Shown: positions 9,249 to 27,288 of the stretch, piece by piece | Layout: each line of letters begins with the position of its first letter | Position numbering within the stretch: position 1 is the first letter of the stretch | From: an uncultured Bacillales bacterium | GTDB taxonomy: Bacteria; Bacillota_I; Bacilli_A; RF39; UBA660 | Assembly (NCBI GenBank): GCA_948433085.1 | Contig: CAOJDP010000003.1 | Location: forward strand, 5,787 to 69,786 | Reading direction: 5' to 3' | DNA length: 64,000 nt | Made by a program: the position numbers and the translations under genes | Notes under the pieces: generated by a model | Seen by the model: only the letters and a program-made list of their open reading frames with translations | Told to the model about the DNA's origin: nothing | Database searches by the model: none

Positions 9249-9305
9249 GATGAAAAAAGGAAATCAAGATCTTTTTCACTAAGATGAAGGTGAGGAGGTT
9301 AAGAT

Positions 9306-10154: not shown

Positions 10155-10357
10155 AAGTGTCTTTTTTTGCTTAATAAATATATCAGCTATGCAATATAGC
10201 TAAGGAATCACCTCTCCTGCAAACATTATAATAAGGGGTGAGTATGATTATTGAATATGTTTCCTAAAAATGCACTATGAATTTTATCTATATTTGTGTT
10301 TCAAAAATAGTAATAATTAGTAATATGTAAATAGGATGTCGCTTCTCAGAGCTTTCC

Positions 10358-10386
10358 TTGACAAATAATACAATTTATTATACAAT
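10358..10386 (+). promoter_or_regulatory. Sigma-A-like promoter of the glycopolymer locus
   Basis: TTGACA (10358-10363), 17 nt spacer, TACAAT (10381-10386), about 110 nt upstream of the first locus gene. Confidence 0.4.
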
Positions 10387-10497
10387 TTTAGGTAGAAAAG
10401 CCAAGCAAAAAATGGATTTATAAATAGTATATTAATAGAAGAATAAAAAACATTGGTAAATTACCTATTTAATTGTTTCGGTATAAGGAGAATGATT

Positions 10498-11112
10498 ATG
10501 TACAAAATAGTAAAGCGTATTATGGACATCATGGTTGCACTTATTTTTTCAATTATTTTGTTACCTATATTTATTATAATATTTGTTGCAATCAAAATAG
10601 AAGATGGTGGTCCTATTTTTTATCATCAAATTCGTACAGGAAAAAATGGAAAGAATTTTAAACTATATAAATTTCGCTCAATGAATGTGCTCCCATTGGA
10701 ATTAGAAATGACAGTACCACATAATCAAAGAATTACCAAAGTTGGTAAGTTTTTAAGAAAAACTTCAATTGATGAATTACCACAAGTTATTAACATTTTA
10801 AAAGGTGAGATGTCTTTGATTGGACCTAGACCTTGGAAAACAGAATATTATGAATTATTCACAGAGGAACAAAAACAACGCTGTGATGTCTTACCAGGAA
10901 TTACTGGATTAGCACAGTCGAAAGGTCGTAATGGGATATCTATTTTTGATAAAATTAAATATGATATAGAATATGCAAAGAATGTCAGTTTTAAAATGGA
11001 TTTACAAATTATATTGGATTCTATCGTAATTATTTTTAAAAGAGAACATGCTGAAATTATGCAAGAAGATATTAAAACAGAATTAGAACAGTTAAGTAAT
11101 CAAACATGTTAG
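10498..11112 (+). CDS. Initiating phosphoglycosyltransferase (bacterial sugar transferase, WbaP/CpsE C-terminal-domain type)
   Basis: Bac_transf signature: an N-terminal TM helix, FYHQIRTGKNGKNFKLYKFRSM, and DELPQVINILKGEMSLIGPRPW. AAGGAG RBS lies 7 nt before ATG 10498. Confidence 0.9.
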   Translation: MYKIVKRIMDIMVALIFSIILLPIFIIIFVAIKIEDGGPIFYHQIRTGKNGKNFKLYKFRSMNVLPLELEMTVPHNQRITKVGKFLRKTSIDELPQVINILKGEMSLIGPRPWKTEYYELFTEEQKQRCDVLPGITGLAQSKGRNGISIFDKIKYDIEYAKNVSFKMDLQIILDSIVIIFKREHAEIMQEDIKTELEQLSNQTC

Positions 11113-11125
11113 GAGAAATATATAT

Positions 11126-12307
11126 ATGAAACAAAAAGTATTGTTCTTAATTCATACACTAGGAGTAGGTGGAGCAGAGAAGGTGCTTGTTAATTTGGCA
11201 AATCATATGAGTGATACATATGATGTGACTGTAATGACTGTAATTGATACAGGCATTTTTAGAATGGAATTGAATCATCGGGTAACATATAAGACAATGT
11301 TTAAAATTCCTTTTTTAAAGAATCATAAAAAAGAAGAATCGGGAAGTTTGCTTGATAAAACAAGTAGAAAAAAGAAAATACTTGCCAAATGCTACTCTAC
11401 AATTTGGAAATATATGCCTACAAAAATATTATATTGGTTAAAAATTAAAGAAAAATATGATATAGAAGTTGCCTTTTTAGAGGGGATTTGTGCAAAAGTA
11501 ATTGCAGCTTCTAATCAACATTCAAAAAAATTTGCTTGGATGCATGTAGACATTATCAATGAAAATAAATCTGATGCGGTTTTTCGTAACCAAAAGGTTG
11601 CCAAATCTTGTTATGAAAAATTTGATAAAATAGTAGCTGTTTCAGAAGGTGTTCAAAAACAATTTATAAAAAAGTTTAATTACAATCCCAAAAAAGTTGT
11701 CGTAAAACATAATGCAATTAATACATCAGAAATTTTAAAAAAAGCAAATGAAAAACTTTCAATTAAAATTCCAAAAGAATTTAAATTGATAACAATTGGC
11801 AGATTGTCAAAACAAAAAGGATATGATCGTTTACTATCTGTTGTAAAAAAATTAAAAGATGATCATATTTTATTTCATTTATGGATACTTGGCGTAGGTC
11901 CAAAAGAACAAGAATTGAAACAATTTGTTATAGAAAATCAACTTCAGGATTGTGTGGAATTTTTAGGTTTTCAATCAAATCCATTTCCTTATTTGAAAAT
12001 AGCAGACCTATTTGTATGTTCTTCTCGCGCTGAAGGATTTAGTACAGTAGCCTGTGAAGCAACTGTGCTTGGAGTTCCCATTGTAACAACTGATTGTTCA
12101 GGAATGAAAGAATTATTAGGGGATAATGAATATGGATTGATTACAGATAATAATGAAAAGGCATTCTATATTGGATTAAAAGAAATTTTAACAAATTCTA
12201 AAAAATATAATCATTATAAACAAAAAATTCAAGAAATTAAAAATATGTTTGATATTGATGTATCTGTGAAACAAATTGAGGAAATGTTTGGTGATACAAA
12301 TGCATAA
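11126..12307 (+). CDS. GT4-family glycosyltransferase
   Basis: N-terminal GVGGAEKVLVNLAN and C-terminal EGFSTVACEATVLGVPIVTTD (E-X7-E region) are typical of GT-B/GT4 enzymes. Confidence 0.85.
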   Translation: MKQKVLFLIHTLGVGGAEKVLVNLANHMSDTYDVTVMTVIDTGIFRMELNHRVTYKTMFKIPFLKNHKKEESGSLLDKTSRKKKILAKCYSTIWKYMPTKILYWLKIKEKYDIEVAFLEGICAKVIAASNQHSKKFAWMHVDIINENKSDAVFRNQKVAKSCYEKFDKIVAVSEGVQKQFIKKFNYNPKKVVVKHNAINTSEILKKANEKLSIKIPKEFKLITIGRLSKQKGYDRLLSVVKKLKDDHILFHLWILGVGPKEQELKQFVIENQLQDCVEFLGFQSNPFPYLKIADLFVCSSRAEGFSTVACEATVLGVPIVTTDCSGMKELLGDNEYGLITDNNEKAFYIGLKEILTNSKKYNHYKQKIQEIKNMFDIDVSVKQIEEMFGDTNA

Positions 12308-13490
12308 TCTAAGAAAAGTTTTATTTATTGTTTACTTTTATTTATTTTTCTTTGTGATGTTCAATCGTGAATTTACTCCTTTTGGAATGGACTTTAGAAT
12401 AATCGTTGGATTCTTGGGTGTGATTTTACTTTTGCTAGGAATAAAAGATATCATTTTGAGAAAAAAAATACTAAAAGTAAAAACAATTGATTATTGTATT
12501 ATCGTCTTTTTTTGTTTATCTTTTTTAAGTAATATTGTATGGTTGTTTAATGGCCTTGAAATGCAAAAGCATCAATTTACTATTATTTTTATCTCATATG
12601 GTTTTAATTTTTTATCCTATTTAGTCTTCCGATTGTACCAAAAATATATTAGTGTGAGTCACTTAAAATATGCAGTCTTGTTTTCGATATTTGCTTTATT
12701 TTATAGTATACTAATTGCCTATATGGAAATTGATATACAGAAATATATAATGAGTGGCTGTCAGGGTTTTGTGAAAGATTTGTCTCCTAATTTTTTAGGT
12801 GGAATATACCGTTACAGTGGTTATGCGGAAGATCCAAATTATGCAAGTTTATTTTTTGTGTTAGCTTCTGCGACTTATATTTACTGTCAAAAATTGCAAA
12901 ATAAAAAAATAAATTATGCATATCTATTATTGTTTTTCCTTGGTATCTTATTATCTGCCTCTAAAACAATAATGGTTGCAATTATGCCAGCAATATGTTT
13001 TATATTACTTAAGAATTGTAAATTTACAGGTTTTCTTAAAAAAATATGGATTCCAGTAATTATTTTTATTCCCATTTTATTTATTCTAAGTGATTTTAAA
13101 TTATTTCATTCTATGATTACAATGAATCAACGGTTTCATATGTGGGAGTATGCATTGGATTTATTTAAACAAAGTCCAATAATTGGAAATGGGTTTACTG
13201 CTTTTCGTTCCTATGCTGTAACAGTAAATTGGTGGTATGTACAATGTCATAGCACAATTTTCCAAATGTTATCAGAAACAGGTGCGATCTCTTTATTGTT
13301 ATTCGCTATTATTTTAACAAAAAATTTGCTAATCAATAATAAATATTTAACTTTTGTGACTGTTTTATTTTCTATTTATATGATTACTACTGAAACTGCA
13401 TATCATGTATATTTTATTTTTATTTTGGCCATTTTACCAATTGTAGTAAAGGAGTGTGAATTATGGAAAAAGCAATCATCTTCCTCGTAA
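12300..13490 (+). CDS. Wzy-type polysaccharide polymerase / O-antigen-ligase-family membrane protein
   Basis: About 10 predicted TM helices with a large loop. It is embedded among glycosyltransferase genes. The start was chosen at in-frame ATG 12300 (GGTGA RBS) rather than the track start at 12276. Confidence 0.65.
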   Translation: MHNLRKVLFIVYFYLFFFVMFNREFTPFGMDFRIIVGFLGVILLLLGIKDIILRKKILKVKTIDYCIIVFFCLSFLSNIVWLFNGLEMQKHQFTIIFISYGFNFLSYLVFRLYQKYISVSHLKYAVLFSIFALFYSILIAYMEIDIQKYIMSGCQGFVKDLSPNFLGGIYRYSGYAEDPNYASLFFVLASATYIYCQKLQNKKINYAYLLLFFLGILLSASKTIMVAIMPAICFILLKNCKFTGFLKKIWIPVIIFIPILFILSDFKLFHSMITMNQRFHMWEYALDLFKQSPIIGNGFTAFRSYAVTVNWWYVQCHSTIFQMLSETGAISLLLFAIILTKNLLINNKYLTFVTVLFSIYMITTETAYHVYFIFILAILPIVVKECELWKKQSSSS

Positions 13491-14560
13491 ATTCTTTATC
13501 AAATGGTGGTGCAGAACGAGTCGTAAGCAATATGGCAAATGAAATGGCTAAAAACGGCTTAAAAGTTTTTATTTTAACTGTATATAATGATGTAACTTAT
13601 GATTTTCATGATAATATAGAGATTATAAGTTTATCGAAAAGGAAATTAAATAAATATAAGAAAATAGGTTATCTTCCTTTTTTGGTACATCGTTTGAATC
13701 AATATTTAAATCATATTTTTAAAAATTATGAGGTAAAACTTATTACATCCCATTTATTGTATTCTAATTTGTTAAGTCGACTATCGAAATATCGTCAAAA
13801 AACGATTCAAGTCGTACATATTCCATATCAGCCATATGATAAGCATAATCATTGGTTATTTCAAAAAGGAATTCAGTTTTTGTATAATCATACACCCATT
13901 GTGACTGTTTCAAATGGATGTATGCATGAATTATTAGATATTTACCATGTGAAAACTAAAAAAATTACGACGATTTATAATCCAATCAATTTATTTGAAA
14001 TTCAAAAAAAATCACAAGAAAAATTACAAATAAAAAAGCCATATATTTTGTTTGTTGGAAGATTGTCAGAACAAAAAAGACCTGAGCTAATGTTAGATAT
14101 TTTTTATCAGGGAAAGTTTTATGAAAATTATCATTTGTATTATTTAGGCACTGGACCTTTAGAGAAATCTTTACAAGAAAAAGTAAAAAATTTCCATTTA
14201 GAAGAATCTGTTACTTTAAAGGGATGGTGTTCGAATGTATATCCTTATATGAAATCTGCTTCTATATTAGTGAATACCTCATCTTATGAAGCATTTCCTA
14301 TGATTTTAATCGAAGCACTTGCTTGTAATTGTAAGATTGTTAGTTTTGATATTCCATATGGGCCAAATGAGATATTAAAAGATGATTTATCTTGTTATTT
14401 GGCAAGAAATCAAAATATAGAAGATATGATTCAAAAAATAAGGGATGCTTTGGTAGATTATCCCAATGTTTTAGAAAATAGAGTAAGGGATTTAGATGTT
14501 GCTCTTATAAATGAAAAATATATGCAAACTTATTTAGATTGGAATAATAAACATGGATAG
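13463..14560 (+). CDS. GT4-family glycosyltransferase
   Basis: SNGGAERVV N-terminus and a C-terminal EAFPMILIEALACNCKIVSFD motif. RBS AAGGAGTG upstream. Confidence 0.85.
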   Translation: MEKAIIFLVNSLSNGGAERVVSNMANEMAKNGLKVFILTVYNDVTYDFHDNIEIISLSKRKLNKYKKIGYLPFLVHRLNQYLNHIFKNYEVKLITSHLLYSNLLSRLSKYRQKTIQVVHIPYQPYDKHNHWLFQKGIQFLYNHTPIVTVSNGCMHELLDIYHVKTKKITTIYNPINLFEIQKKSQEKLQIKKPYILFVGRLSEQKRPELMLDIFYQGKFYENYHLYYLGTGPLEKSLQEKVKNFHLEESVTLKGWCSNVYPYMKSASILVNTSSYEAFPMILIEALACNCKIVSFDIPYGPNEILKDDLSCYLARNQNIEDMIQKIRDALVDYPNVLENRVRDLDVALINEKYMQTYLDWNNKHG

Positions 14561-15572
14561 AGTTAGTATTATTGTTCCTGTTTATAATAACGAGAATTAT
14601 ATTTTAAAGTGTATGAATAGTTTATTGAATCAAACTTATTCTAATATTGAAATTATTGTAGTAGATGATGGTTCTACTGATTCAACTTATGAAGTATTAA
14701 AGCAATATCAAAATGAGATAATTATTCTTCATCAAGATAATCATGGAGTATCTTATAGTCGAAATCGTGGAATGGAAGTAGCAACAGGTACTTATATTAT
14801 GTTTGTAGATAGTGATGATTGGATTGCACCTGATATGGTAGAAACTTTAATGAAAATGACAGAGAATGGCTCTATCGATATTGTTAGATGTGGTTATATT
14901 CGAGAATATCCTAAACATAAAGATACTTTTCAAATTTGTACAGAAAATTTAAAAATAATAGACAATAAGAATATTATTTATGAAATGTTTATCAAAGACT
15001 ATCGTTTGGCTTCTCCTTGTTGCCAAGTGATACATAAAAAATGTATCGAAACAAAATTTGATGAAACCATTCAAGTAGGAGAGGATTATTTATTTAATTT
15101 AGCACTTTATACACATGCCTCCTCTTTTGTTTTTTTAAAGGATGCCTATTATCATTATTTGTATAATTTTGAAAGTGCAACAACTAGTGTTGGTAGGAAA
15201 AAAATAGAAAAAAGATGTGAAGATGCACTCTTAGTATATTCTAAATTATATGATTATTTAAAAATTTGGAAGATAGAAAATAAGAAGAATATACAGAAGG
15301 TATCTTATCGTATTGTGAAAGAATTAAATATGAAATTACTTGCTTGTTTTCAAAACCATCACATGCCAAAAAAGGAACAAAAAAAATTAATGGATATTTA
15401 TTTTCATCATGTGTTATTAAAAGAAGCAAGAAAAAAATTATCAGTTGCTATGATTTTAAAGTATTTTCATATTTATACCTTATTTCTTCTTTGTTTAAAG
15501 ATGAATTTAAAGAATTTGTATTATATTTTAGGACGAACAATTTATTATACCTTATATTCCATTAAAAAGTAG
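14553..15572 (+). CDS. GT2-family glycosyltransferase
   Basis: SIIVPVYN...VDDGSTDST...FVDSDD (DXD) GT-A signatures. Translationally coupled to the upstream gene. Confidence 0.85.
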   Translation: MDRVSIIVPVYNNENYILKCMNSLLNQTYSNIEIIVVDDGSTDSTYEVLKQYQNEIIILHQDNHGVSYSRNRGMEVATGTYIMFVDSDDWIAPDMVETLMKMTENGSIDIVRCGYIREYPKHKDTFQICTENLKIIDNKNIIYEMFIKDYRLASPCCQVIHKKCIETKFDETIQVGEDYLFNLALYTHASSFVFLKDAYYHYLYNFESATTSVGRKKIEKRCEDALLVYSKLYDYLKIWKIENKKNIQKVSYRIVKELNMKLLACFQNHHMPKKEQKKLMDIYFHHVLLKEARKKLSVAMILKYFHIYTLFLLCLKMNLKNLYYILGRTIYYTLYSIKK

Positions 15573-15579
15573 GTGATTT

Positions 15580-16515
15580 ATGAAGGCATTGGTTTCTGTG
15601 ATTGTTCCTATTTATCGTGTAGAGTTATATATAGAAGAATGCATTGATTCTATATTAAATCAAACTTATTCCAATTTAGAAATTATTTTAGTTGATGATG
15701 GAAGTGATGATCGATGCCCTAGTATATGTGATGCATATCAAAAGAAAGATTCACGTATTCATGTAATTCATAAGGAAAATGGGGGATTATCTGATGCAAG
15801 AAATGTAGGCATTGATGTTGCCAAAGGGGACTATATTTGTTTTATTGATTCTGATGATGCGGTGCATCCTTGTTTTATACAAACTTTGTATGATGATTTA
15901 ATATCTACAAATTCTGATATAGCAATTTGTCATTATGAAAAGGTAGATAGGATTCCTGATATGATAGAATTTCAAGGAAAATTAAATCGAAATGTTTATA
16001 CGCAAACAGAACTTTTAAATTCTTTATATGGACCCGAAACATTATCTATTATTGTGGCTTGGAATAAGTTATATCGTAGACATATTTGGGAGCAATTGCG
16101 TTATCCTGTAGGGAAAGTGCATGAGGATGAATTTGTGATTCACTATATTTTAGATCAGGTAAATCAGGTCGTAATTAATGCAGGAACATACTATTATTAT
16201 CGGCAAAGGGAAGGTAGTATTACGAGTTGTTATAATGAAAAACGGTTACATGCATTAGAAGCATTAGAGAATCGAATTCAATTTTATCAAACTATCGCAA
16301 ACGAAACACTTGTCCATCAAACAATGTATCAATACTTTTTTATGATTATAAGACATATGAAACAAATGCGTAAGCAAAAGCAATTTACGGATTTAAAAAA
16401 GGAGTTACGAAAAAAACTTGGGTATTTATGGAAAAGTTTAATCATTTGTAAAGATATTCCATTTTTGAAAAAGATAAAATTAAGTCTTTATGGAATGAAA
16501 AGTAAAATGCTGTAG
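15580..16515 (+). CDS. GT2-family glycosyltransferase
   Basis: VSVIVPIYR...VDDGSDD...FIDSDD GT-A signatures. AGGTGA RBS. Confidence 0.85.
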   Translation: MKALVSVIVPIYRVELYIEECIDSILNQTYSNLEIILVDDGSDDRCPSICDAYQKKDSRIHVIHKENGGLSDARNVGIDVAKGDYICFIDSDDAVHPCFIQTLYDDLISTNSDIAICHYEKVDRIPDMIEFQGKLNRNVYTQTELLNSLYGPETLSIIVAWNKLYRRHIWEQLRYPVGKVHEDEFVIHYILDQVNQVVINAGTYYYYRQREGSITSCYNEKRLHALEALENRIQFYQTIANETLVHQTMYQYFFMIIRHMKQMRKQKQFTDLKKELRKKLGYLWKSLIICKDIPFLKKIKLSLYGMKSKML

Positions 16516-16526
16516 GAGGAATTTGT

Positions 16527-17552
16527 ATGTTATGTAAAGATTTGTTAAAAAAGTTTCTGTATGTATCTGCTTATAAAAGATATATAAGAACTTGTAAAAA
16601 AAGTGGTCAAAAAAAATATATTTTGTTTGGAACTCCAAAACATGGTAATATTGGAGATCATGCAATTACTTTAGCAGTGTATCAATTTTTTAAAGATATG
16701 GGAAAACAGATATTTGAGGTTTCTAGTTTTGATCGTAAATATATTTTACCTTATATGCAAAAACATATTAATAAAGAGGATATACTTATGATTAATGGTG
16801 GAGGATTTATGGGATCGCTTTGGATAGAGGAAGAAAAGATGATTCGTGATGTATTTTCCCATTTTTTATATCATAAAATCGTTATTTTACCACAAACTAT
16901 ATATTATAAAGAAGATTGTTTAGGGATGAAGGAAATGAATACCTCTTTTAAACTTTATAATGCACATCAAGATTTAGTTGTATGTACTAGAGAAGCTATT
17001 TCTTATCGATTTGCTTGTGAACATTTTAAAATGGCAAAAGTAATTTTTGTTCCTGATATGGTATTATACTACGATAATTTTTGGAGTGATGAAAATAGAA
17101 AGAATGTTCTTTTTTGTCTTAGAAGTGATTCTGAAAAAAGTGTACAAGAGGCAACCATACAAAATATCAAAAAAATTTTTAATCAAATCAATCAACAAAT
17201 TGTGTATACAGATACAGTTATTCATAAGGGAATTTCTAAAAAAGAACGCAATTCTGTTTTTATCAATAAGTTGCTTGAATTTTCAAAATATGAGATAATA
17301 GTAACTGATCGATTGCATGGGATGATTTTTGCAGCGTTAACGGAAACCCCATGTATTGTTTTAAGTAATTATAATTATAAAGTAAAAGGTGTTTATGAAT
17401 GGATTAAGGAGCTAGAATACGTTCGCTTTATAGAAGATGAAAGTCAATTAGAAAAAAATATTTTAGAATTATTATCACAAAAATTCCCACATCAAAAAAG
17501 AGTGTGTGATAAAACAAAGTTTGCAGAATTAATTACTTTATTTGAGGAGTGA
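16527..17552 (+). CDS. Polysaccharide pyruvyl transferase (CsaB/WcaK family)
   Basis: N-terminal GTPKHGNIGDHAITLA and a C-terminal DRLHGMIFAAL...PCIVL motif are typical of PS_pyruv_trans. AGGAGG RBS. Confidence 0.75.
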   Translation: MLCKDLLKKFLYVSAYKRYIRTCKKSGQKKYILFGTPKHGNIGDHAITLAVYQFFKDMGKQIFEVSSFDRKYILPYMQKHINKEDILMINGGGFMGSLWIEEEKMIRDVFSHFLYHKIVILPQTIYYKEDCLGMKEMNTSFKLYNAHQDLVVCTREAISYRFACEHFKMAKVIFVPDMVLYYDNFWSDENRKNVLFCLRSDSEKSVQEATIQNIKKIFNQINQQIVYTDTVIHKGISKKERNSVFINKLLEFSKYEIIVTDRLHGMIFAALTETPCIVLSNYNYKVKGVYEWIKELEYVRFIEDESQLEKNILELLSQKFPHQKRVCDKTKFAELITLFEE

Positions 17553-17556
17553 AAAG

Positions 17557-18645
17557 ATGGATAAAATAAAAAAATATATAGAGTGTTATATTCCAACAGA
17601 AACCTGTAATTTTAGGTGTCATTATTGTTATATTGCACAGCAGGGAAAGTTTAAAAATAAATTAGCAAAATTCATTAAAACACCTCAAGAAATCAGAGCT
17701 GCTTTTACAAAAAAAAGGCTAGGTGGAACTTGCCTCTTTAATTTGTGTGCAGGTGGAGAAACATTATTAGTAAAAGAGATTGTGGAAATTACGCGTCAAT
17801 TATTAGAAGAAGGACATTATGTTATGATTGTAACCAATGGGTCACTTAGTAATCGTTTTAAAGAGTTTGCTCAATTTCCAAAAGCATTATTACATCGCTT
17901 GATTTTTAAATTTTCTTTTCATTATATAGAGCTCAAGAAAATGAAATTGCTTGATCAATATTTTGATAATGTAAATTTAATGAAAAAATCAGAGGCTTCT
18001 ATTGTAGTAGAAATTACCCCAAATGATGAAACAGAAGAATATATTTCTGAAATCAAGGAAATTTGTATGGAAAAGCTAGGTGCTTTGCCACAAGTTACAA
18101 TTGCTAGAAATGATAATGATCGAAGAATTAGTCATTTGTCTAAACATAGTTTTGAAGATTTTGTCAAAATATGGAGTGCGTTCGATTCCCCCATGTTGGA
18201 TTTTAAATCAACAATATTTTATAAAAAAAGAAAAGAGTATTGTTATGCAGGGGATTGGAGTATTTATGTCAATTTAGTAACAGGGGAATATTCTCAGTGC
18301 TATTGTGGAATTCGTCTTGGTAATGTCTATGAAAATATTAATCAGCCACTCAAATTGATAGCAATGGGGAAGAAGTGTTCTTTACCACACTGCTATAATG
18401 GTCATGCTTTTATTACACTTGGAGATATTCCAGAATTAGATGCGATTACATATGCAGAGCTTAGAAATCGTATCAGTGGAGATGGGACTGAATGGTTGAG
18501 TAAAGAAATGAAAGAATTTATTGGTACGAAATTGTCAGAATCGAATTCTAAATATAGTAGTATTCAGAAAATTAGCAATGAAGTAAAAAGGTATGGAACA
18601 GCATTCAATAATCGAATCAAAAAAAGGAAAACAAAAGATAATTGA
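17557..18645 (+). CDS. Radical SAM enzyme with a C-terminal Cys-rich (SPASM/twitch-like) extension
   Basis: CNFRCHYC CxxxCxxC motif, a GGE-like CAGGETLL motif, and C-terminal cysteines (CYAGDW...QCYCG...CSLPHC). RBS GAGGAGTGA precedes ATG 17557. Confidence 0.8.
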   Translation: MDKIKKYIECYIPTETCNFRCHYCYIAQQGKFKNKLAKFIKTPQEIRAAFTKKRLGGTCLFNLCAGGETLLVKEIVEITRQLLEEGHYVMIVTNGSLSNRFKEFAQFPKALLHRLIFKFSFHYIELKKMKLLDQYFDNVNLMKKSEASIVVEITPNDETEEYISEIKEICMEKLGALPQVTIARNDNDRRISHLSKHSFEDFVKIWSAFDSPMLDFKSTIFYKKRKEYCYAGDWSIYVNLVTGEYSQCYCGIRLGNVYENINQPLKLIAMGKKCSLPHCYNGHAFITLGDIPELDAITYAELRNRISGDGTEWLSKEMKEFIGTKLSESNSKYSSIQKISNEVKRYGTAFNNRIKKRKTKDN

Positions 18646-18647
18646 TT

Positions 18648-20186
18648 ATGAAAAAGCAAATTTTAATTAATATTATTGCTAGTATTATTGCATTTCTTGT
18701 TCAAATGGTAATTAGTTTTGGTTTAACCCCAATATTGGTTAATTCATTAGGGGAAGATGCTTATGGATTTATTGGTTTGGCTAATAATTTTGTTACTTAT
18801 GCGACTGTTTTTACAGTAGCAATTAATTCCATTGCTGGTAGATTTATATCTATTGCGTATAATAAGGGAGAAATAGAAAAAGCCAATTCTTATTATTCTT
18901 CCTTATTTTTTGCAAATGCAATATTATCAATTGTCATATTTTTCTTATCTATTTTTATTACAATTGAATTACATAATATTATAAAAATACCATTTTCACT
19001 TAATTATGATGTTAAGATTACTTTTTTGCTTGTATTTATTAATTTTATATTTTCTTTGTTCCATGTTACTTTTCAAGTGGTACCGTTTGTAAAGAATAAA
19101 GTAAGTTTAGTATCTGTTGTAACAGCAGTTTCTAATATTTTAAAAGTTGCGATTATTTTATGTTTATTTTCATTATTTCAACCTAAAATTTATTATATTG
19201 CCATTGCGACTTTAGCTTATAGCACTATTTTATTAGTATTATGTATTTGTATTTCCAAAAAATTATCTTCTGAATTAAAGATTCATGTGCATTCTTTTGA
19301 TTGGAAATCAGTAAAAACTTTATTTGTTTCAGGTATTTGGAATTCTATTAATAATCTAAGTAGAATTATATTAGTTGGTTTTGATTTATTAATTGCAAAT
19401 ATATTTGTAGGATCTTATTCTATGGGAATTTTGTCAATTTCCAAAAATATTCCAAATGCAATTGATACTTTATTATCCACATTAGCAGTTGCATTTGTTC
19501 CTAGTATTACTATTTCGTATGCTAAAAATAGAATTCAAGATGTTATCTCTGAAATAAAATTTTCTATGAAAATGATTGCTTTATTAATGATTGTTCCAGT
19601 TGCAGGGTTTATTATTTTTGGAACAGACTTTTATAGATTGTGGTTACATAAGTCGATAGAAGAAGTAAAATTAATTCAATTGTTATCTGTTTTAACTTTA
19701 ATTCCCTATATGTTTAGTATTTGCAACTTTACATTACCAAATATTGATACGATAACCAATAAATTAAAACGGGCTTCTATTTTCACGTTGGCAATGAGCA
19801 TCGTCACTTTAATTACAGAAATTGTCGTTTTAAAGACGTCTGATTTAGGTGTAATTGCAATTGCAAGTGTTAGTTCCTTTTATTGGGTAATAAAGTTAGC
19901 AATCTTTAATCCGCTCAATGCAGCTAAAAATTTAAATGTAAAATGGTATACATTTTATCCTGATTTTTTAAAATCATTTTTCTGTTTTTGTCTTATTTTG
20001 ATTTTATATCTATTTTTGTATCAATATATGTCTATTACTTCTTGGAAGGATTTAATTCTTTCAGCAATACTTTTTGGTACGATTGGATATGTGATTAGTT
20101 TTCTTTTCATTTTAAATAAAAAAGAAAAAAATTGGGTTTATAACAAAATTTCCAGCCGTTTGCCGTTTGTAAACGGGGGGGGGTAA
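18648..20186 (+). CDS. Wzx-type oligosaccharide flippase (polysaccharide biosynthesis protein, MOP superfamily)
   Basis: About 500 aa with 12-14 TM helices, inside a glycan locus. It ends ...FVNGGG* on a G9 tract. The start was set at ATG 18648; the track begins at TTG 18642. Confidence 0.8.
   Translation: MKKQILINIIASIIAFLVQMVISFGLTPILVNSLGEDAYGFIGLANNFVTYATVFTVAINSIAGRFISIAYNKGEIEKANSYYSSLFFANAILSIVIFFLSIFITIELHNIIKIPFSLNYDVKITFLLVFINFIFSLFHVTFQVVPFVKNKVSLVSVVTAVSNILKVAIILCLFSLFQPKIYYIAIATLAYSTILLVLCICISKKLSSELKIHVHSFDWKSVKTLFVSGIWNSINNLSRIILVGFDLLIANIFVGSYSMGILSISKNIPNAIDTLLSTLAVAFVPSITISYAKNRIQDVISEIKFSMKMIALLMIVPVAGFIIFGTDFYRLWLHKSIEEVKLIQLLSVLTLIPYMFSICNFTLPNIDTITNKLKRASIFTLAMSIVTLITEIVVLKTSDLGVIAIASVSSFYWVIKLAIFNPLNAAKNLNVKWYTFYPDFLKSFFCFCLILILYLFLYQYMSITSWKDLILSAILFGTIGYVISFLFILNKKEKNWVYNKISSRLPFVNGGG
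20175..20183 (+). repeat. G9 homopolymeric tract (candidate slipped-strand phase-variation site or homopolymer error hotspot)
   Basis: GGGGGGGGG sits directly 5' of the Wzx stop TAA (20184-20186). It is unique in this AT-rich window. Confidence 0.9.
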
Positions 20187-20247
20187 AATTTTAATTGTTA
20201 TTGTTATCATTTTTAGTTTTCTATTTTTAATTCAAAGAAAAGAAAAT

Positions 20248-20979
20248 GTGCAATATATTCATTTTTCAGTAGATGACACCATTCTATTGTTTGCTGATTT
20301 AGAGCAAAATAAAGATGTGTATACTAGTATATTTGAGAATGCTACTTTAAAATATTTTCAAAGATTACATAAGCAGTATGGATTAAAAGTTACTTTTTAT
20401 TGTTTCTACGAATTTTCGAATGTTTCTTTAGAAAATATTACCAGTCAGTATCGGAAAGAGTTTGAAGAAAATTCTCATTGGTTACAATTTGGATTTCACG
20501 CTTATGATGCAGGAAGAGAATATGATAAAGATTCTTTCCATTATAGTATTACAAATGATTATCTAACTGTTATTCAGGCATTAGAAAATATTGTTGGAGA
20601 AAAAGCGATTAGCAAGCATTTACGATTAGAGAAATTTTCTTTAAATGAAGGGAATGCAAATTGTTTAAAAGATGTGGGAATTCAAATTCTATTTGGAAGT
20701 GATACTTTAGAAAAAAATAGTTATTATTTAAACAGTGAACAATCTTATCAGTTGTTTACCAAGGGTTATTATTATGATTGGAAAAAACAACTTCAATTTT
20801 ATAAAACGGATATTCGAATAGAGCAATCAAAAGGTGTAGAAGATATGATTCAGGATATAAAAGGAGATTCTTATTTAGTTATTTTTACACATGAATGGTT
20901 ATTGAGTGATTTATTAAAAGAAAAAATGGAATTACTCTTGAAACAATTGCAGAAATATAAATATCAATTTTCTATATAA
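20248..20979 (+). CDS. Hypothetical protein, possibly a divergent NodB/CE4-like deacetylase-type fold (weak)
   Basis: GTG start with a weak RBS. It contains HFSVDD and FHAYDAGREY motifs. The frame is open upstream back to 20173 and there encodes a hydrophobic segment KILIVIVIIFSFLFLI. Confidence 0.45.
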   Translation: MQYIHFSVDDTILLFADLEQNKDVYTSIFENATLKYFQRLHKQYGLKVTFYCFYEFSNVSLENITSQYRKEFEENSHWLQFGFHAYDAGREYDKDSFHYSITNDYLTVIQALENIVGEKAISKHLRLEKFSLNEGNANCLKDVGIQILFGSDTLEKNSYYLNSEQSYQLFTKGYYYDWKKQLQFYKTDIRIEQSKGVEDMIQDIKGDSYLVIFTHEWLLSDLLKEKMELLLKQLQKYKYQFSI

Positions 20980-21002
20980 AGTTGGTAGAAGTGAGGTTAG
21001 TG

Positions 21003-22022
21003 ATGAAGAAAGAAATTAAAGTCAAGTTTGTAGATTTTTACGACTCTTATAATCCAAAAGAACATTTTTTGTATCAAGCGTTGGAAAGAAAATACCATGT
21101 TGTTTTATCTGATAAACCAGATTATTTGTTCTTTTCTGTATTTGGTGATGAACATTTGCATTATGACTGTATTAAAATATTTTATACAGGAGAAAATTTA
21201 TGTCCAGATTTTAATTTATGTGATTATGCAATAGGTTTTGAATATTTAGAGTATCAAGACCGCTATATGCGTTTACCAAATTATTACCATCCAGCATATG
21301 CAAAAGATTTGAATGCTATGTTGAAAAGGACATCATTTACAGAAGAAGATTTAGTGCAAAAGGAAGGATTTTGTAGTTTTGTTTATTCCAATGGAAATGC
21401 AGATCCTATTCGTGAAATATTTTTTGAACAATTATCTCAGTATAAACAAGTTCATTCAGGGGGTAAATTTAAAAATAATATTGGTGGACCCGTAGCAGAT
21501 AAAATTGAATTTCAAAGAAAATATAAATTTTGTTTAGCTTTTGAAAATTCTTCCCATCCTGGATATACTACAGAAAAATTAATTCAAGCTTATGCTTCTA
21601 ATGCAATTCCAATCTATTGGGGAGATCCATTTGTGACGAAAGTGTTTAATGAAAAATCGTTTATCAATGTAGGTGCTTATAATACGATAGAAGATGCGAT
21701 TGCTTTTATTCAAAAAATAGATAGGGATGATTCGCTTTATTTGGAAATGATGCATGAATCGCCATTATGTGTAGAAGAAAATGTGATTGCATATAAAATG
21801 GATGAATTAAGTGCTTTCTTATCCAATATTATGGAGCAACCTTTTGAAAAAGCGAAACGTTATAATCGAGTATGTATTGGAAAAAAATATATTCAAAAAT
21901 TGAAATTATGGAACAAAGCATATGATAAAAAAATAAAAGTGCGAATGAAAAAATTTATATTTAAAATGAAAAAATTTAGGGTAAATGTATTGAAAAAATA
22001 TAGATTATTTGGATATAGATAA
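21003..22022 (+). CDS. GT10-family alpha-1,3-fucosyltransferase-like glycosyltransferase
   Basis: GT10 signature KYKFCLAFENSSHPGYTTEKLIQAY (FxLxFENSxxxxYxTEK) and a C-terminal basic amphipathic repeat region (KKYIQKLKLWNKAYDKKIKVRMKKFIFKMKKF). GTGAGG RBS before ATG 21003. Confidence 0.65.
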   Translation: MKKEIKVKFVDFYDSYNPKEHFLYQALERKYHVVLSDKPDYLFFSVFGDEHLHYDCIKIFYTGENLCPDFNLCDYAIGFEYLEYQDRYMRLPNYYHPAYAKDLNAMLKRTSFTEEDLVQKEGFCSFVYSNGNADPIREIFFEQLSQYKQVHSGGKFKNNIGGPVADKIEFQRKYKFCLAFENSSHPGYTTEKLIQAYASNAIPIYWGDPFVTKVFNEKSFINVGAYNTIEDAIAFIQKIDRDDSLYLEMMHESPLCVEENVIAYKMDELSAFLSNIMEQPFEKAKRYNRVCIGKKYIQKLKLWNKAYDKKIKVRMKKFIFKMKKFRVNVLKKYRLFGYR

Positions 22023-22127
22023 TCTATTTTTTTATAAGAATGAATATAAGATATAATAGGATTTTTTTAAAAAATCTTATTTCTAAAATTCAAGATATTT
22101 GTTTGTCCTTCTTAATACAAAAATTTA

Positions 22128-22158
22128 TTTTCCATTCAAGTAATGGAAAAATTTTTTT
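22128..22158 (+). terminator. Rho-independent terminator ending the glycosyltransferase operon
   Basis: 9 bp stem TTTTCCATT / AATGGAAAA with a 5 nt loop, followed by ATTTTTTTAT. Confidence 0.5.
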
Positions 22159-22310
22159 ATGTAATCTATATTTAGTTGAGTAGCAATTAAACATAAATTT
22201 TCCTTTTACAATTGAGAAATACATATGCGAATAAAAACTTTAAAAAATATTTAATTTTTGAAAACGATATGTTATAATAATCTTGTGAAGCTAGTAGAAA
22301 GAAGTGAATT

Positions 22311-23756
22311 ATGTCAAAGAAAAAAAATAAAAAAAATAGAATAATTGTGCAAAGAATTGGAACAGTATTATCTATTTTATTATTCGCAATTTCATTTGTA
22401 TTTTTTACAATGTTATTTCAGGTAAGTGTATTGCCAATGAAGTATCTTTTAATTGTTTTAGGAATTTATTTACTTGTTGTGTTGGGCTCTGTAGCAATTT
22501 TATTGATTCCAAAGATTAAAATAAAGTTAAAAATAGTAGTAGAGATTTTATCTACAATCATAATTATTTTTGTAAGTTTTATTTCATTTTATTTATATAA
22601 GACAATGGATTTTATGGGGAATATTAAAGCGAAAGATTATCAAATTGAAAATTATTATGTAGTTGTTTTAAAAGATAGTAAATACGAAACATTAGAAGAT
22701 TTGAAAAGTAAAACAATCGGGCTTCATCGGAGTAATTTGGAGAGTCAAAAAGATGCAATCGAAACGTTGAATAAAAAGCTATCTTATACAGATGAAGAAT
22801 ACGAAGATTTTATGAAATTAGGGAAAGATTTATTAGACAAACAAGTAGATGCGATATATATGAATGGTTCATATTTGTCCATTTTACAAGAAGAAAATGA
22901 ATCATTTGAAGAAAAAACAAAATTACTAGCAACAATAGAGTTACAAGTAAAAAATGAAACAGTAAAAAAAGATACAAATGTAACAAAAGAGCCATTTAAT
23001 ATATATATTAGTGGAATTGATACATATGGGGATATTTCTTCTGTATCAAGAAGTGATGTAAATATTATTGCTACGGTAAATCCTGTTACACATAAAGTGT
23101 TGTTAACTTCAATACCAAGAGATTACTATGTAAGACTTCATGGAACTACAGGCTATAGAGATAAGTTAACACATGCTGGAATTTATGGAATTGATATGTC
23201 AATTACAACATTAGAGGATTTACTTGATATTGATATCAACTATTATGTGAGAGTGAATTTTACTACTCTCATAGAACTTGTAGATGCAGTAGGTGGTGTA
23301 ACTGTGAATTCAGATTATAATTTTACTGCTATTTCAGGAGAAAAATTTATAAAGGGTGACAATATCTTAAATGGATCACAAGCACTTGCTTTTTCAAGAG
23401 AACGTCATGCATTTATAGATGGAGATCGTCAACGTGGCAAAAATCAACAAAAAGTAATTACAGCAATTATTAATAAAGCATTAAGCTCTACAACATTAAT
23501 TACAAAATATACGAATATATTAAATTCATTGCAAGATAGTTTTCAAACAAATATGGACAGTAATAAAATATATGATTTAGTGAATATGCAATTAAATAAA
23601 ATGCCATCTTGGCAAATTGAATCCATTAATTTAGATGGAACAGGAAAAAGTGAATTTACTTATTCTTATAGTGGGCAAAAACTATATGTAATGGAACCAG
23701 ATGTTAGTACGGTAAATGCAGCGCAAGCAAAAATAAATGAAGTAATAGGAGGGTAA
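22311..23756 (+). CDS. LytR-CpsA-Psr (LCP) family glycopolymer ligase with N-terminal multi-TM region
   Basis: LCP domain: NIYISGIDTYGD...NIIATVNPVTHKVLLTSIPRDYYV...VRVNFTTLIELVDAVGGVTV...FSRERH. Three to four N-terminal TM helices. Confidence 0.85.
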   Translation: MSKKKNKKNRIIVQRIGTVLSILLFAISFVFFTMLFQVSVLPMKYLLIVLGIYLLVVLGSVAILLIPKIKIKLKIVVEILSTIIIIFVSFISFYLYKTMDFMGNIKAKDYQIENYYVVVLKDSKYETLEDLKSKTIGLHRSNLESQKDAIETLNKKLSYTDEEYEDFMKLGKDLLDKQVDAIYMNGSYLSILQEENESFEEKTKLLATIELQVKNETVKKDTNVTKEPFNIYISGIDTYGDISSVSRSDVNIIATVNPVTHKVLLTSIPRDYYVRLHGTTGYRDKLTHAGIYGIDMSITTLEDLLDIDINYYVRVNFTTLIELVDAVGGVTVNSDYNFTAISGEKFIKGDNILNGSQALAFSRERHAFIDGDRQRGKNQQKVITAIINKALSSTTLITKYTNILNSLQDSFQTNMDSNKIYDLVNMQLNKMPSWQIESINLDGTGKSEFTYSYSGQKLYVMEPDVSTVNAAQAKINEVIGG

Positions 23757-23768
23757 CCTCCTTTTTTG
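23747..23768 (+). terminator. Rho-independent terminator after the LCP gene
   Basis: AGGAGG / CCTCCT stem with loop GTAA (which contains the stop codon), then TTTTTT. Confidence 0.5.
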
Positions 23769-23954
23769 TAGAAAATAAAATATACAAGCGGTGTAAATAG
23801 GTTAAATAGATGCTCTAATGCTTAGATAGAATCTTTATAATTCTCAATAGTCATAGGATAAAACGAGAAGATATATAGAGTAATTTTTACTTCAATTAGT
23901 ACTTTTATTTTGTTGTAAAATTTTGTATAATGGAATGAGAATGGAGATGGAGAT

Positions 23955-25232
23955 ATGGCAGGTATCAAAATAAAATCTCATAAAGAAATGTCGAAAGATA
24001 GTTTTACAATTTATAATAAGCCAAAATACATTTATATTCCATTAATGGGAAGCAATGACCAAGATATTACAGTTTTCGTTAAAAAAGGAGACTATGTATG
24101 TAAAGGAGAAATGGTCGCTAGAAGAAAAGGTGCCTTTTCTATTCCTTTTCATACCAGTGTAAGTGGAACTGTAATTGGTTTTGAAGAAAAACTACATCAT
24201 AGTGGGACCTATGTCAGATGTATTAAAATTGAAAATGATTTGAAAGAGCGAGTAGAAGAATCACTAGAAATAAAAGAAAATTTATCCAAGGAAGAATTTA
24301 TTGAAACAATTAAAAATGCAGGAATTATAGGAATGGGGGGTGCAGGCTTTCCAACCTATATTAAATATCAAACCGATCAAAAAATAAAAACTTTAATTGT
24401 AAATGCAGTAGAATGTGAGCCATATATTACAGCAGATTATACTCTTGGAATTCAAAAAGCAGAAGCAATCTTAGAAACAATTGATCGAATAATGGAAATA
24501 AACGAAATTGAAAAAGCTTTTATTGCAGTTAAAAAAAACAATCAGCAATTCATTCAAGCTTTTCAATTTGTAATAGGTACTTATGTAAATATTGAAATTA
24601 AAATAGTGCCAGATTGCTATCCTATGGGATGGGAAAAAATGTTGGTAAAAACAATAACCAAAAAAACATATCAAAAACTTCCCATTGAAATTGGTGTAGT
24701 TGTAAATAATTTATCTACAATTTATGCAATACATCAAGCTTTAACAGGGATTCCACTCATTGAAAGAATAATTACCATTACAGGGGATTTGGTAAAAAAA
24801 CCACAAAATGTACAAGTAAAAATAGGAACTCCACTTCATGAAGTGATTGAAGCAATCAGTGGAATGAAACGTCATAAAGATGTTATTTGTATCGCAGGTG
24901 GTCCTATGATGGGGAATGCTTTAAAAGAAGATGATGTAATTGTGACAGCTGATTTGAATGGTCTGATTTTGTTAAAAGAAAAAGAGGAATGTAAGGAACA
25001 TACTTGTATGCGTTGTGGAAAATGTATAAATGTTTGTCCAGCAGGTATTGAACCAGTTCTTATCAAAGAATCATATCAAGATAAGGAACAATTAAATCGT
25101 TTGCAAGTTGGAAAATGTATTGAATGTGGTTTATGTTCTTATATTTGTCCAGCAAAAATAAATGTGAGAGAATATGTTAGAAAAGCGAAAAAGACTGTTA
25201 GAAAGGAGACTGCAAATGAAAGAATATCATGA
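23955..25232 (+). CDS. rnfC: Rnf electron transport complex subunit C
   Basis: NADH/FMN-binding GIIGMGGAGFPTYIKY and two 4Fe-4S motifs (CMRCGKCINVCP; CIECGLCSYICP). Confidence 0.85.
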   Translation: MAGIKIKSHKEMSKDSFTIYNKPKYIYIPLMGSNDQDITVFVKKGDYVCKGEMVARRKGAFSIPFHTSVSGTVIGFEEKLHHSGTYVRCIKIENDLKERVEESLEIKENLSKEEFIETIKNAGIIGMGGAGFPTYIKYQTDQKIKTLIVNAVECEPYITADYTLGIQKAEAILETIDRIMEINEIEKAFIAVKKNNQQFIQAFQFVIGTYVNIEIKIVPDCYPMGWEKMLVKTITKKTYQKLPIEIGVVVNNLSTIYAIHQALTGIPLIERIITITGDLVKKPQNVQVKIGTPLHEVIEAISGMKRHKDVICIAGGPMMGNALKEDDVIVTADLNGLILLKEKEECKEHTCMRCGKCINVCPAGIEPVLIKESYQDKEQLNRLQVGKCIECGLCSYICPAKINVREYVRKAKKTVRKETANERIS

Positions 25233-26661: not shown

Positions 26662-26751
26662 AAAAATTAAGGGCGTATTCGCGCTAACAATAACAACCTT
26701 TATATGTACATTGCTTCTTTATTTGATTATGAATTTTATTGGGGGTTAACA

Positions 26752-27288
26752 ATGTCTTTAAATTCATTTTATTATAAGTTGTTACACATTGAATCAAAAC
26801 CTTTATCAGAAACTTACATTTTATGGGAAATTGAGGAAACTATAAAGGAAGAAATGGATTCGATTCAAAATTGGTCAAGTAGTATTGAGGGACTTTGTAA
26901 AGTTGCAAGTTACCATATTGGTGAAATGCTAAGACAAAAAGGGATATCTATTGCGTATTTGAATACTAAGAATTTTTCTTGTGCGTTTGAGCATGTTGCA
27001 CTATTAGTTTACTATGAAATAAGCAATGAAATAAAGTATATTTTAATTGATGTAACATATGAACAATTTCTTCCTGTTGCAAATAGAAGACTTAATCCTA
27101 AATTGAAAAGCTGGCCTGGGATATGTTTAATGGAAAATAATTTTAGTTTGTATGAAAACTTATGTACCAAAGGTTATTCTTCCATTACAATCAAGGACTT
27201 AAATGATTATATGAAAAGTTTTGGATATACAAACAATTTAAATAATAATTTATTTGATGTGATTCTACATACACATAAGAAAAAATAA
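26752..27288 (+). CDS. Hypothetical protein inserted between rnfDG and rnfE
   Basis: 178 aa from ATG 26752 (GGGGG RBS). No TM helix and no recognisable Rnf subunit signature. It has a Cys...His...Asp arrangement (SCAFEHVALLVYY...ILIDVTYEQF) faintly reminiscent of transglutaminase-like cores. Confidence 0.4.
   Translation: MSLNSFYYKLLHIESKPLSETYILWEIEETIKEEMDSIQNWSSSIEGLCKVASYHIGEMLRQKGISIAYLNTKNFSCAFEHVALLVYYEISNEIKYILIDVTYEQFLPVANRRLNPKLKSWPGICLMENNFSLYENLCTKGYSSITIKDLNDYMKSFGYTNNLNNNLFDVILHTHKKK

Follow-up and report, generated by a model that had tools for sequence, protein, structure and literature searches.

A Wzx/Wzy-type polysaccharide locus with a paired pyruvyl transferase and radical SAM enzyme and a flippase gene split at a G9 tract in an uncultured Bacillales bacterium

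Introduction

Wall polysaccharides that Firmicutes make through a Wzx/Wzy-like pathway are exemplified by PSII of C. difficile, the locus of which encodes an initiating polyprenyl-phosphate glycosyl-1-phosphate transferase (PGT; CD2783), glycosyltransferases (GTs), an MviN flippase, a polymerase (CD2777) and the LCP proteins LcpA and LcpB, and gives a wall polymer with a branched hexasaccharide repeat (PMC5065235). No tyrosine kinase is mentioned for this locus in the text of PMC5065235, and a Wzx/Wzy wall-polymer locus with an LCP protein and described without a tyrosine kinase is therefore already known from PSII. We have analyzed a 64-kb stretch of contig CAOJDP010000003.1 from an uncultured Bacillales bacterium (called the window; all positions follow its numbering), in which 12 same-strand open reading frames (ORFs) at 10453-23756, with small gaps or overlaps between neighbors and all on the + strand, encode a polysaccharide locus in the order PGT, GT4, Wzy, GT4, GT2, GT2, pyruvyl transferase (PvT), radical SAM enzyme (rSAM), Wzx, an ORF without a family match, GT10 and LCP. 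Like PSII, it has the composition of a Firmicute Wzx/Wzy-like pathway with an initiating transferase, GTs, a flippase, a polymerase and an LCP ligase. This likeness is one of gene content; the C. difficile locus differs in having the precursor genes manC and pgm2 and two LCPs, and the text of PMC5065235 shows no pyruvyl transferase, radical SAM, GT10 or CE4-like gene.

The Wzy-dependent cps loci of S. pneumoniae share with the present locus a PGT, GTs, Wzy, Wzx and an LCP protein of Cps2A architecture, as well as the mosaic GT complement that is found between relatives of the window. They differ from it because the LCP gene of the window is the last and has promoter-like and terminator-like sites of its own, because its PGT is a small single-domain protein, and because CpsB/C/D and sugar-nucleotide genes are lacking among the 58 ORFs scanned, which are every non-nested ORF of >=90 amino acids (aa) plus one shorter in the 64 kb. 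In the CsaB-dependent systems for secondary cell-wall polymers (SCWPs) of Bacillus anthracis and Paenibacillus alvei, a PF04230 transferase acts on the lipid-linked wall-polymer precursor and an LCP protein attaches the polymer to peptidoglycan. In contrast to these, the window transferase is not a CsaB equivalog, no SLH domain is present in the scanned ORFs and the pathway is Wzy-dependent.

Families were assigned by Pfam gathering scores, with the equivalog cut-offs of NCBIfam as a second check. Labels of the form L### denote contigs or genome loci that bear homologs, and those of the form P#### denote database proteins. When each ORF was checked with hidden Markov models (HMMs), all families named in an earlier annotation of this DNA made from its letters (the original prediction) were recovered above the Pfam gathering scores and in the same order. 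The whole is best explained as one Wzx/Wzy-dependent heteropolysaccharide locus that includes a PvT-rSAM module and a Wzx-CE4 gene split by a homopolymer tract, and we regard this explanation as likely. The module and the split gene are two features not described in the literature searched. As a bolder and distinctly tentative proposal, PvT and rSAM may be an unrecognized two-enzyme tailoring system that has spread horizontally in polysaccharide loci of gut anaerobes (Bacillota, Bacteroidota, Verrucomicrobiota, Spirochaetota, Fibrobacterota, Melainabacteria and others) and perhaps installs a non-ketal pyruvate-derived group, e.g., a radical-modified or reduced 1-carboxyethyl-type group; the exported polymer might be edited by a new CE4-fold domain, the fusion of which to the flippase might be toggled by the G9 tract via phase variation or +1 recoding.

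The pyruvyl transferase and radical SAM pair

The PvT gene (16527-17552) encodes a polysaccharide pyruvyl transferase of the PF04230 family (PS_pyruv_trans, 96.4 bits) that is no CsaB ortholog, and the rSAM gene is located at 17557-18645 (alternative start 17542; 362 aa; Pfam 42.7 bits). The CxxxCxxC motif at C17/C21/C24, a GGE-type SAM motif and a partial TIM-barrel fold place the rSAM protein in the radical SAM superfamily, and seven Cys residues are invariant, including C229, C248, C274 and C279 beyond the cluster motif. Its best fold matches are SPASM/twitch enzymes, with no SPASM match in Pfam at E<=10; its fold resembles that of BlsE, and an auxiliary Fe-S cluster is probably present. 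Identity to four carbohydrate radical SAM enzymes of antibiotic pathways (BlsE, DesII, BtrN and AprD4) is only 8-16%, and unlike these four, the present family sits in polysaccharide loci, where it is paired or fused with PvT. The family is large and tightly conserved, with approximately 55-60% identity across Clostridia, and its members are named just "radical SAM protein" in the sources. No curated NCBIfam model covers it; the best is a partial match to viperin with 50 bits against a cut-off of 180.

The distribution of the family was obtained from 185,579 representative species genomes, among which the host species is not included. A relative of rSAM is carried by 194 of them, and the best 80 of these 194 were analyzed. 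They belong to Clostridia, Bacilli, Bacteroidota, Akkermansia, Gastranaerophilales, Fibrobacter, Brevinema, Kiritimatiellia and Bifidobacteriaceae, together with one alphaproteobacterial metagenome-assembled genome (MAG). A PvT gene lies within 200 bp of rSAM in 56 of the 80 genomes and within 3 kb in 70, and the rSAM gene touches a PS_pyruv_trans gene in every contig first examined. Both gene orders are seen among 54 same-strand adjacent pairs, most of which overlap or are separated by a gap of <=25 bp. The two proteins are fused in a single ORF in a Bacteroides MAG (L095, 714 aa) and again in L101 (705 aa), a 414-kb contig whose CE4-like gene is labeled uncultured Treponema by its source. 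In addition, the pairwise-identity matrices of PvT and rSAM correlate with each other (r = 0.73, Mantel p = 0.001). PvT and rSAM are a co-inherited and sometimes fused two-enzyme module in many phyla of gut anaerobes. As the conserved partner of PvT, rSAM does not stand alone, in contrast to the extra tailoring step that had been predicted. Nothing on a pairing of PvT with rSAM was found in the literature searched.

The mean identity is 53% for rSAM, 29% for PvT and 24% for Wzx. Because rSAM is far more conserved than PvT, we infer that rSAM acts on a constant chemical group and that PvT adapts to each glycan. This suggests a pyruvate-derived group or its donor as the target of rSAM, and its role may be ketal or enolpyruvyl modification, preparation of the acceptor sugar or alteration of the donor, among which we give no ranking. 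Another explanation, which we consider possible but doubtful, is that rSAM is unrelated to pyruvylation and is an independent anaerobic sugar modifier (epimerase, dehydrogenase, dehydratase or decarboxylase, like BlsE, BtrN and AprD4) that happens to be in the same cassette. The fusion of rSAM with a GT2, not with PvT, in L033, its fusions in L047 and L054 to a domain with no detectable similarity to PvT, and a further correlation, between the identity matrices of rSAM and Wzx (r = 0.57), agree with such independence. The direct adjacency of PvT in the 56 genomes, in either order and across phyla, and the two independent rSAM-PvT fusions speak for a functional link instead, and the 53% conservation far exceeds that of glycan-specific enzymes and does not agree well with a substrate that differs from one repeat unit to the next. 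Two points weaken the proposal of a dedicated module. Ten of the 80 genomes lack a PvT gene up to 3 kb away from rSAM; truncation affects some of these loci, and one is a fusion scored as rSAM. In addition, the 80 loci were picked via rSAM, so that the survey is one of the partners of rSAM and does not extend to the share of PvTs lacking an rSAM partner.

In the two Gastranaerophilales-type loci L047 (107-2278) and L054 (9977-12130), rSAM is fused to a C-terminal domain of approximately 370 aa with no Pfam match. Assignment of this domain as a divergent PvT was rejected, since it has no Pfam support and the hhalign probability is 0.15%.

The G9 tract between Wzx and the CE4-like domain

Poly-G tracts in capsule genes of C. 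jejuni and poly-C tracts in futA/futB of H. pylori are homopolymer contingency loci. In Helicobacter canadensis, a phase-variable 3' tract decides whether HCAN_0660/0661 gives two proteins or one fusion (PMC2823697). The window resembles such loci in that a surface-glycan ORF has a G-tract at its 3' end, the length of which would decide if the following ORF is translated as part of a fusion. It differs from them in having a Gram-positive-type gut commensal lineage as host, for which tract variation in the population is a prediction.

The Wzx flippase gene (18642-20186; MOP family; Polysacc_synt 43.7 bits, cut-off 28.2) ends with …AAC GGG GGG GGG TAA, and its stop codon directly follows a G9 homopolymer at 20175-20183, read here as a candidate frameshift or phase-variation switch. 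The +1 frame relative to Wzx (20173-20247) is open from just past a TAA, encodes the transmembrane linker TGGGKILIVIVIIFSFLFLIQRKEN without a canonical start codon and leads into the CE4-like domain at 20248-20979, which has 243 aa from its first GTG at 20248. When one G is deleted in silico, an ORF of 778 aa is obtained, which can be aligned from one end to the other with two natural proteins that are each encoded by a single ORF, namely P0303 (45.6% identity, residues 3-763) and P0430 (42%, residues 4-776). As in contingency loci, a change of the tract by one unit switches between meaningful products. The G9 tract is the only G/C run of >=7 in the 64 kb, for which approximately 0.008 runs of >=9 are expected. 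The related-species locus L099 has the same split, the same +1 relation and an open linker, and its tract is G6. Among contigs of the same species, the window, L001 and L002 carry G9, and L008 carries G10, which is its sole difference from the otherwise identical sequence over 8.2 kb.

These data suggest that the G9 tract may act as a phase-variable or frameshift-controlled switch. Three events could restore the fusion: one G may be lost from the DNA (slipped-strand phase variation), RNA polymerase may slip while transcribing the G9 run, or the ribosome may shift by +1 at GGG-TAA. The out-of-frame state is kept in a second species with only G6, and this conservation argues for translational recoding no less than for phase variation. 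In prfB (RF2), a +1 programmed frameshift occurs at CUU UGA C. The window has in common with prfB a putative slippery P-site codon before the stop (GGG TAA A), a G-rich Shine-Dalgarno-like stretch upstream and a predicted product in the +1 frame, which is a resemblance of sequence only, and the gene context is unrelated. In a restored fusion, the deacetylase-fold editing domain would stand past an extra transmembrane helix, probably outside the cell, and could modify the exported polymer.

The tract may also be no switch at all: the Wzx-CE4 fusion could have decayed or the tract length could be an assembly error, with the CE4-like ORF being a 243-aa cytoplasmic protein started at GTG 20248 or a pseudogene. 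We judge this to be unlikely, and several observations nevertheless count in its favor and against a switch. In none of the genotypes seen is the CE4-like ORF in frame with Wzx (there are three cases of G9, one of G10 and the G6 of L099), and no in-frame (ON) allele was seen in the lineage. The contigs with G9 and G10 have approximately 4-5x coverage, and a homopolymer in one rnf gene of L002 is clearly wrong by 1 bp, so that the tract-length polymorphism is a putative one. Soluble forms exist in the family, because 65 of 115 standalone members have no N-terminal hydrophobic segment, and the 243-aa ORF is accepted by the gene caller. Against decay, every invariant residue of the family is retained over the 243 codons, and the 25-codon transmembrane linker is open and start-less in two species approximately 24% apart in nucleotides, which is hard to explain unless it is translated. 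The G9 run is about 100-fold unexpected in the genome and lies exactly at the junction, and by reading there is no good Shine-Dalgarno sequence 5' of GTG 20248. Tracts of this kind are also frequent in related polysaccharide loci, with 24 G/C tracts of >=8 in 1.6 Mb, some of them inside CE4-like and rSAM genes.

Tracts within or at the start of rSAM or CE4-like genes were also observed in other phyla (L081 1989-1997, G9; L084 11004-11013, C10; L094 11248-11257, G10; L101 9343-9351, G9), a hint that switching by homopolymer tracts is a common property of the module. The homopolymer difference in L002 is at window positions 27852-27855, where the window has C4 and the otherwise identical L002 has C3; the call of an rnf membrane-subunit gene is thereby shortened, probably through an assembly error at low coverage.

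The CE4-like domain

The ORF at 20248-20979 had been listed as an unknown gene beside GT10. It proved to be a CE4-fold domain that belongs with Wzx and is split off from it at the G9 tract. It has the (beta/alpha)7 barrel of NodB. In a comparison of 34 homologs, H84, R126, Y159, R190 and H215 are invariant, and H5, D9 and D10 are nearly so. A profile search gave 961 cluster representatives at E<=1e-30, and the family is outside Pfam. The domain is fused to the C-terminus of Wzx flippases several times, and P0303 and P0430 carry an N-terminal Polysacc_synt domain. Among standalone members, 50 of 115 have an N-terminal hydrophobic, signal or lipobox/lipoprotein segment, and in the 273-aa variant P0178 the transmembrane N-terminal extension is the same peptide as the window linker. 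Three independent look-ups from the side of the CE4-like domain (L099, L100 and L101) all fell beside PvT and rSAM, and a CE4-like gene is within 3 kb of rSAM in 22 of the 80 rSAM loci.

The proposed editing function has two observations against it, as the window ORF has no Pfam match at E<=10, Polysacc_deac_1 included, and no NCBIfam match, and the family lacks the canonical HxxxH motif of the Asp/HxxxH metal triad; the family may therefore not be a deacetylase. Among CE4/NodB enzymes, ArnD acts on an undecaprenyl-phosphate-linked sugar. The present family differs from ArnD, PgdA, Agd3 and PelA in the absence of a Pfam or NCBIfam match and of HxxxH, and in its fusions to Wzx flippases, a phage BppU baseplate domain and a GH106 rhamnosidase. 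The latter two fusions are P0333 (647 aa), in which the domain occurs with a BppU-type baseplate domain, and P0384 (1087 aa), in which it is C-terminal to a GH106 alpha-L-rhamnosidase; presumably phages and glycan degraders use the domain on polysaccharide substrates. Fusions of approximately 620 aa were considered as rSAM-CE4 proteins, and this was rejected for the four tested because they have no Radical_SAM domain by Pfam. A functional pairing of the CE4-like gene with GT10 was likewise rejected, because L099 has no GT10 and the CE4-like family is elsewhere beside or fused to Wzx, PvT or rSAM.

Related loci and the class of the polymer

Of the related loci, L016 and the window are colinear over the stretch that extends from GT4 to Wzx, with 76.6% nucleotide identity over 8.6 kb, and again in the LCP gene (80%); L016 has 328 bp in place of the 2.17-kb segment that contains the CE4-like domain and GT10 in the window. 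L099 has the CE4-like gene and no GT10. The loci L013-L015 share only PvT-rSAM-Wzx and the LCP gene with the window, differ in the remaining glycosyltransferases, and also carry rml genes and a second LCP. In L004 and L018 (downstream) and in L007 and L024 (upstream), the shared backbone is immediately adjoined by genes for Wzz, a ParA-type kinase and CpsB. The backbone is a mosaic cps-type cassette in which the kinase module is optional and is locally absent from the closest relatives of the window. Phase variation of PvT was considered for L013, L015 and L006, where its ORF is split; it was rejected for L013, which has a scaffold gap of N's, and for L015, which has a substitution cluster typical of low coverage.

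No Wzz, tyrosine kinase (BY-kinase, ParA-type), CpsB/CpsB_CapC or nucleotide-sugar family is present in the 58 scanned ORFs, and the predicted lack of a kinase/Wzz module and of sugar-nucleotide genes is thus upheld for the whole 64-kb window. The streptococcal cps order, with cpsA/LCP first and then cpsB, cpsC and cpsD, is not matched here, where LCP is last and cpsB/C/D do not occur. The LCP protein aligns with the pneumococcal Cps2A model NF051849 over the full length (residues 8-481 against 4-477) with 393 bits, the equivalog cut-off being 650. Cps2A itself is a capsule ligase. From the layout of the locus and its place between uvrA and the rnf operon, the original prediction had favored a wall-anchored secondary polymer over a capsule. 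The part that stands is a Wzx/Wzy locus closed by an LCP ligase; the choice between capsule and wall polymer does not follow from the layout, given the Cps2A-type LCP, the related backbones with adjacent Wzz, kinase and CpsB, and the precedent of PSII. A wall-anchored polymer is plausible, is not decided by the layout and would not be new.

An ordinary capsule locus of the streptococcal type, with CpsB, CpsC and CpsD (phosphatase, Wzz-like co-polymerase and BY-kinase) and the sugar-nucleotide genes elsewhere in the genome, is an alternative to which we give a minor share of the probability. Besides the complete Cps2A architecture of the LCP, it has on its side the Wzz, ParA-type kinase and CpsB genes directly beside the same PvT-rSAM-Wzx-LCP backbone in L004/L018 and L007/L024, and the fact that the donor genes of GT10 must be located elsewhere anyway. 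It is opposed by the absence of all these families from the scanned ORFs of the window, and also from the nearest relatives L016, L099 and L013-L015 within flanks of up to 10 kb.

The GT10 gene (20982-22022; FucT_N 123.9 bits, Glyco_transf_10 82 bits) is alpha-1,3/4-fucosyltransferase-like and likely starts at ATG 21003, giving 339 aa according to the gene call in L001. Both FucT_N and the C-terminal GT10 domain are present, and the alpha-1,3-fucosyltransferase motif FCLAFENSSHPGYTTEK (pattern FxLxFENSxxxxYxTEK) can be read in the translation. On account of this motif, GDP-L-fucose should be needed as donor. Since this is not a housekeeping precursor, it is doubtful that the locus relies entirely on housekeeping sugar precursors, as had been predicted. 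It counts against our reading of GT10 that genes for GDP-fucose (gmd/fcl or fkp) were not found in the 64-kb window, and GDP-L-fucose is a predicted donor.

A CsaB-type SCWP, in which a pyruvate ketal anchors SLH-domain surface proteins, would be near to what the original prediction had in mind, and a pyruvyl transferase and an LCP ligase do share the locus without a capsule kinase. We consider this very unlikely. The window transferase scores 39.5 bits against the CsaB equivalog TIGR03609, the cut-off of which is 213, and no SLH-domain protein turned up among the scanned ORFs, so that the prediction finds no support in this form. The locus also has a Wzy polymerase and six glycosyl-transfer enzymes. 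Known pyruvylated SCWPs are made by a TagA/TagO-type disaccharide pathway, unlike this layout. Furthermore, the PvT-rSAM pair is also present in Gram-negative Bacteroidota, Akkermansia and Fibrobacter.

Gene organization and proposed pathway

The highest-scoring promoter-like site in 9000-24500, TTGACA-17-TACAAT, is at 10358-10386 on the + strand and matches 11 of 12 consensus positions, the evidence being a consensus match only. The PGT gene at 10453-11112 (Bac_transf 208.7 bits) encodes a small initiating transferase, for which the gene call on the identical contig L102 begins at about 10498 (204 aa); it aligns only to the catalytic C-terminal portion of WcaJ/WbaP-type models and is of the small single-domain type. 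It is followed by a GT4 gene (11126-12307; Glycos_transf_1 116 bits), the Wzy-type repeat-unit polymerase gene (12276-13490; Wzy_C 47 bits, cut-off 31.7), a second GT4 gene (13463-14560; Glycos_transf_1 95.9 bits, Glyco_transf_4 59.6 bits) and two GT2 genes (14553-15572 and 15580-16515; Glycos_transf_2 131 and 135 bits, respectively). Wzy has 404 aa and approximately 8-10 transmembrane segments, of which a crude hydropathy scan gives 8.

The domain Wzy_C is common to WaaL and PglL-type enzymes, and the "Wzy" of the window could accordingly be an O-oligosaccharyltransferase or ligase in a locus that glycosylates proteins and builds no polymer. The best NCBIfam matches of the two GT4s, PglJ (for 11126-12307) and PglH, are compatible with this, and their scores of 161 and 156 bits are far under the cut-off of 500. 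Such a function is very unlikely, because an LCP ligase ends the locus here and in its relatives, and because the size of 404 aa and the gene position agree with Wzy of colinear loci.

After GT10 there are two AT-rich hairpins, each with a T-run on its 3' side, at 22000-22027 (-10.4 kcal/mol, z = -3.1) and 22128-22150 (-7.1 kcal/mol, z = -1.8). These terminator-like structures were missed by the terminator scanner, which is G+C-biased. The sequence TGTTATAAT at 22270-22278, by direct reading a putative extended -10-like element, is located 5' of the LCP gene (22311-23756; LytR_cpsA_psr 132.7 bits), whose product is a glycopolymer-peptidoglycan ligase of Cps2A architecture with an N-terminal transmembrane region, an accessory domain and the LCP domain. 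A further terminator-like hairpin with a T-run (23747-23770; by terminator scan and folding) covers the LCP stop codon. The hairpins after GT10 and the TGTTATAAT element before LCP fit an LCP gene with its own terminator and promoter, and its earlier description as separately terminated is a fair reading. The limits first given for the locus, 10358 and 23756, correspond to the top promoter-like site on the left and to a hairpin with T-run at 23747-23762 on the right.

In the pathway proposed here, the small PGT would start the repeat unit on undecaprenyl phosphate, and the two GT4, the two GT2 and the fucosyltransferase-like GT10 enzymes would extend it to roughly a hexasaccharide. PvT and its rSAM partner would tailor the lipid-linked unit on the cytoplasmic face, after which Wzx would flip the unit and Wzy would polymerize it. 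Finally, the Cps2A-type LCP enzyme, presumably expressed from its own promoter, would join the polymer to peptidoglycan. All substrates in this scheme, and the membrane side of the CE4-like domain, are predicted ones.

Surrounding genes and host

The predicted position of the locus between uvrA and the rnf operon, with an Rpn-type gene at its left border, was confirmed by Pfam. The uvrA gene is at 6429-9248, and rnfC begins at 23955 with the rnf operon to the right. The Rpn/PDDEXK_2-family nuclease gene at 9306-10154 (+ strand; PDDEXK_2 53.4 bits; TIGR01784 46.8 bits, cut-off 52.1) is outside the pathway. A second gene of this family is found at 40877-41788, 31 kb downstream. The two were considered as flanking repeats of a mobile unit, and this was rejected, since they are only 26% identical and no composite element is formed. 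The G+C content of the locus is 0.25-0.29 and that of the flanks 0.27-0.34, so that there is no clear signal of foreign DNA.

Upstream of uvrA, positions 2557-5201 encode an Hpt protein and a hybrid histidine kinase with HisKA, HATPase and receiver domains; their homolog is the immediate upstream neighbor of the related polysaccharide locus in an uncultured Bacilli MAG (L018 3-1460; L004 2-460). The phosphorelay could be a conserved neighbor of the polysaccharide locus. In the rnf operon, the 495-aa ORF at 25174-26661 encodes RnfD with a C-terminal FMN_bind (RnfG-like) domain, and a 194-aa ORF without a family match (26704-27288) occupies the position expected for rnfG. Relatives of rnfC in the metagenome scan were two distant loci only, with 53% and 47% identity. 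Just past the rnf operon, 29513-34828 encodes a 593-aa protein with a GFO_IDH_MocA domain, murD and an LtaS-like sulfatase-fold protein (263 bits, cut-off 970), and these are further cell-envelope genes downstream of the locus. At 54778-58078, a sortase gene comes after the gene of a 913-aa surface protein, which contains six SpaA-fold repeats and a thioester (TED) domain; the two genes look like a pilin or adhesin cassette.

The remaining genes of the window are housekeeping ones (rpoC, murD, LtaS-like, the sporulation gene yqfD, era, recO, PASTA kinase and mraZ-mraW-PBP). Proteins of MAGs labeled Bacilli, Tenericutes or Firmicutes share 82-84% identity with UvrA, and the host, as judged from its sequence, is an uncultured low-GC gut Bacillota lineage.

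Biological significance

As a whole, the locus adds one more LCP-anchored Wzx/Wzy wall polymer of a known class, from a poorly known uncultured gut lineage. The CE4-like domain defines a family of approximately 1000 members (at 50% clustering) that is outside every domain database and is used also by phages and glycan-degrading enzymes. The split Wzx-CE4 gene provides a compact and testable case in which a homopolymer tract would decide whether a flippase bears an external editing domain.

The PvT-rSAM pair occurs in 194 or more species genomes, fusions of the two are frequent, and nothing on the pair was found in the literature searched; it therefore marks a surface-glycan modification common in gut anaerobes. 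In polysaccharides such as B. fragilis PSA, pyruvate groups determine both the charge and the recognition by the immune system. If the proposal is true, recognition between host and microbe and between phage and host would have a new determinant in a radical-SAM-dependent variant of such a group.

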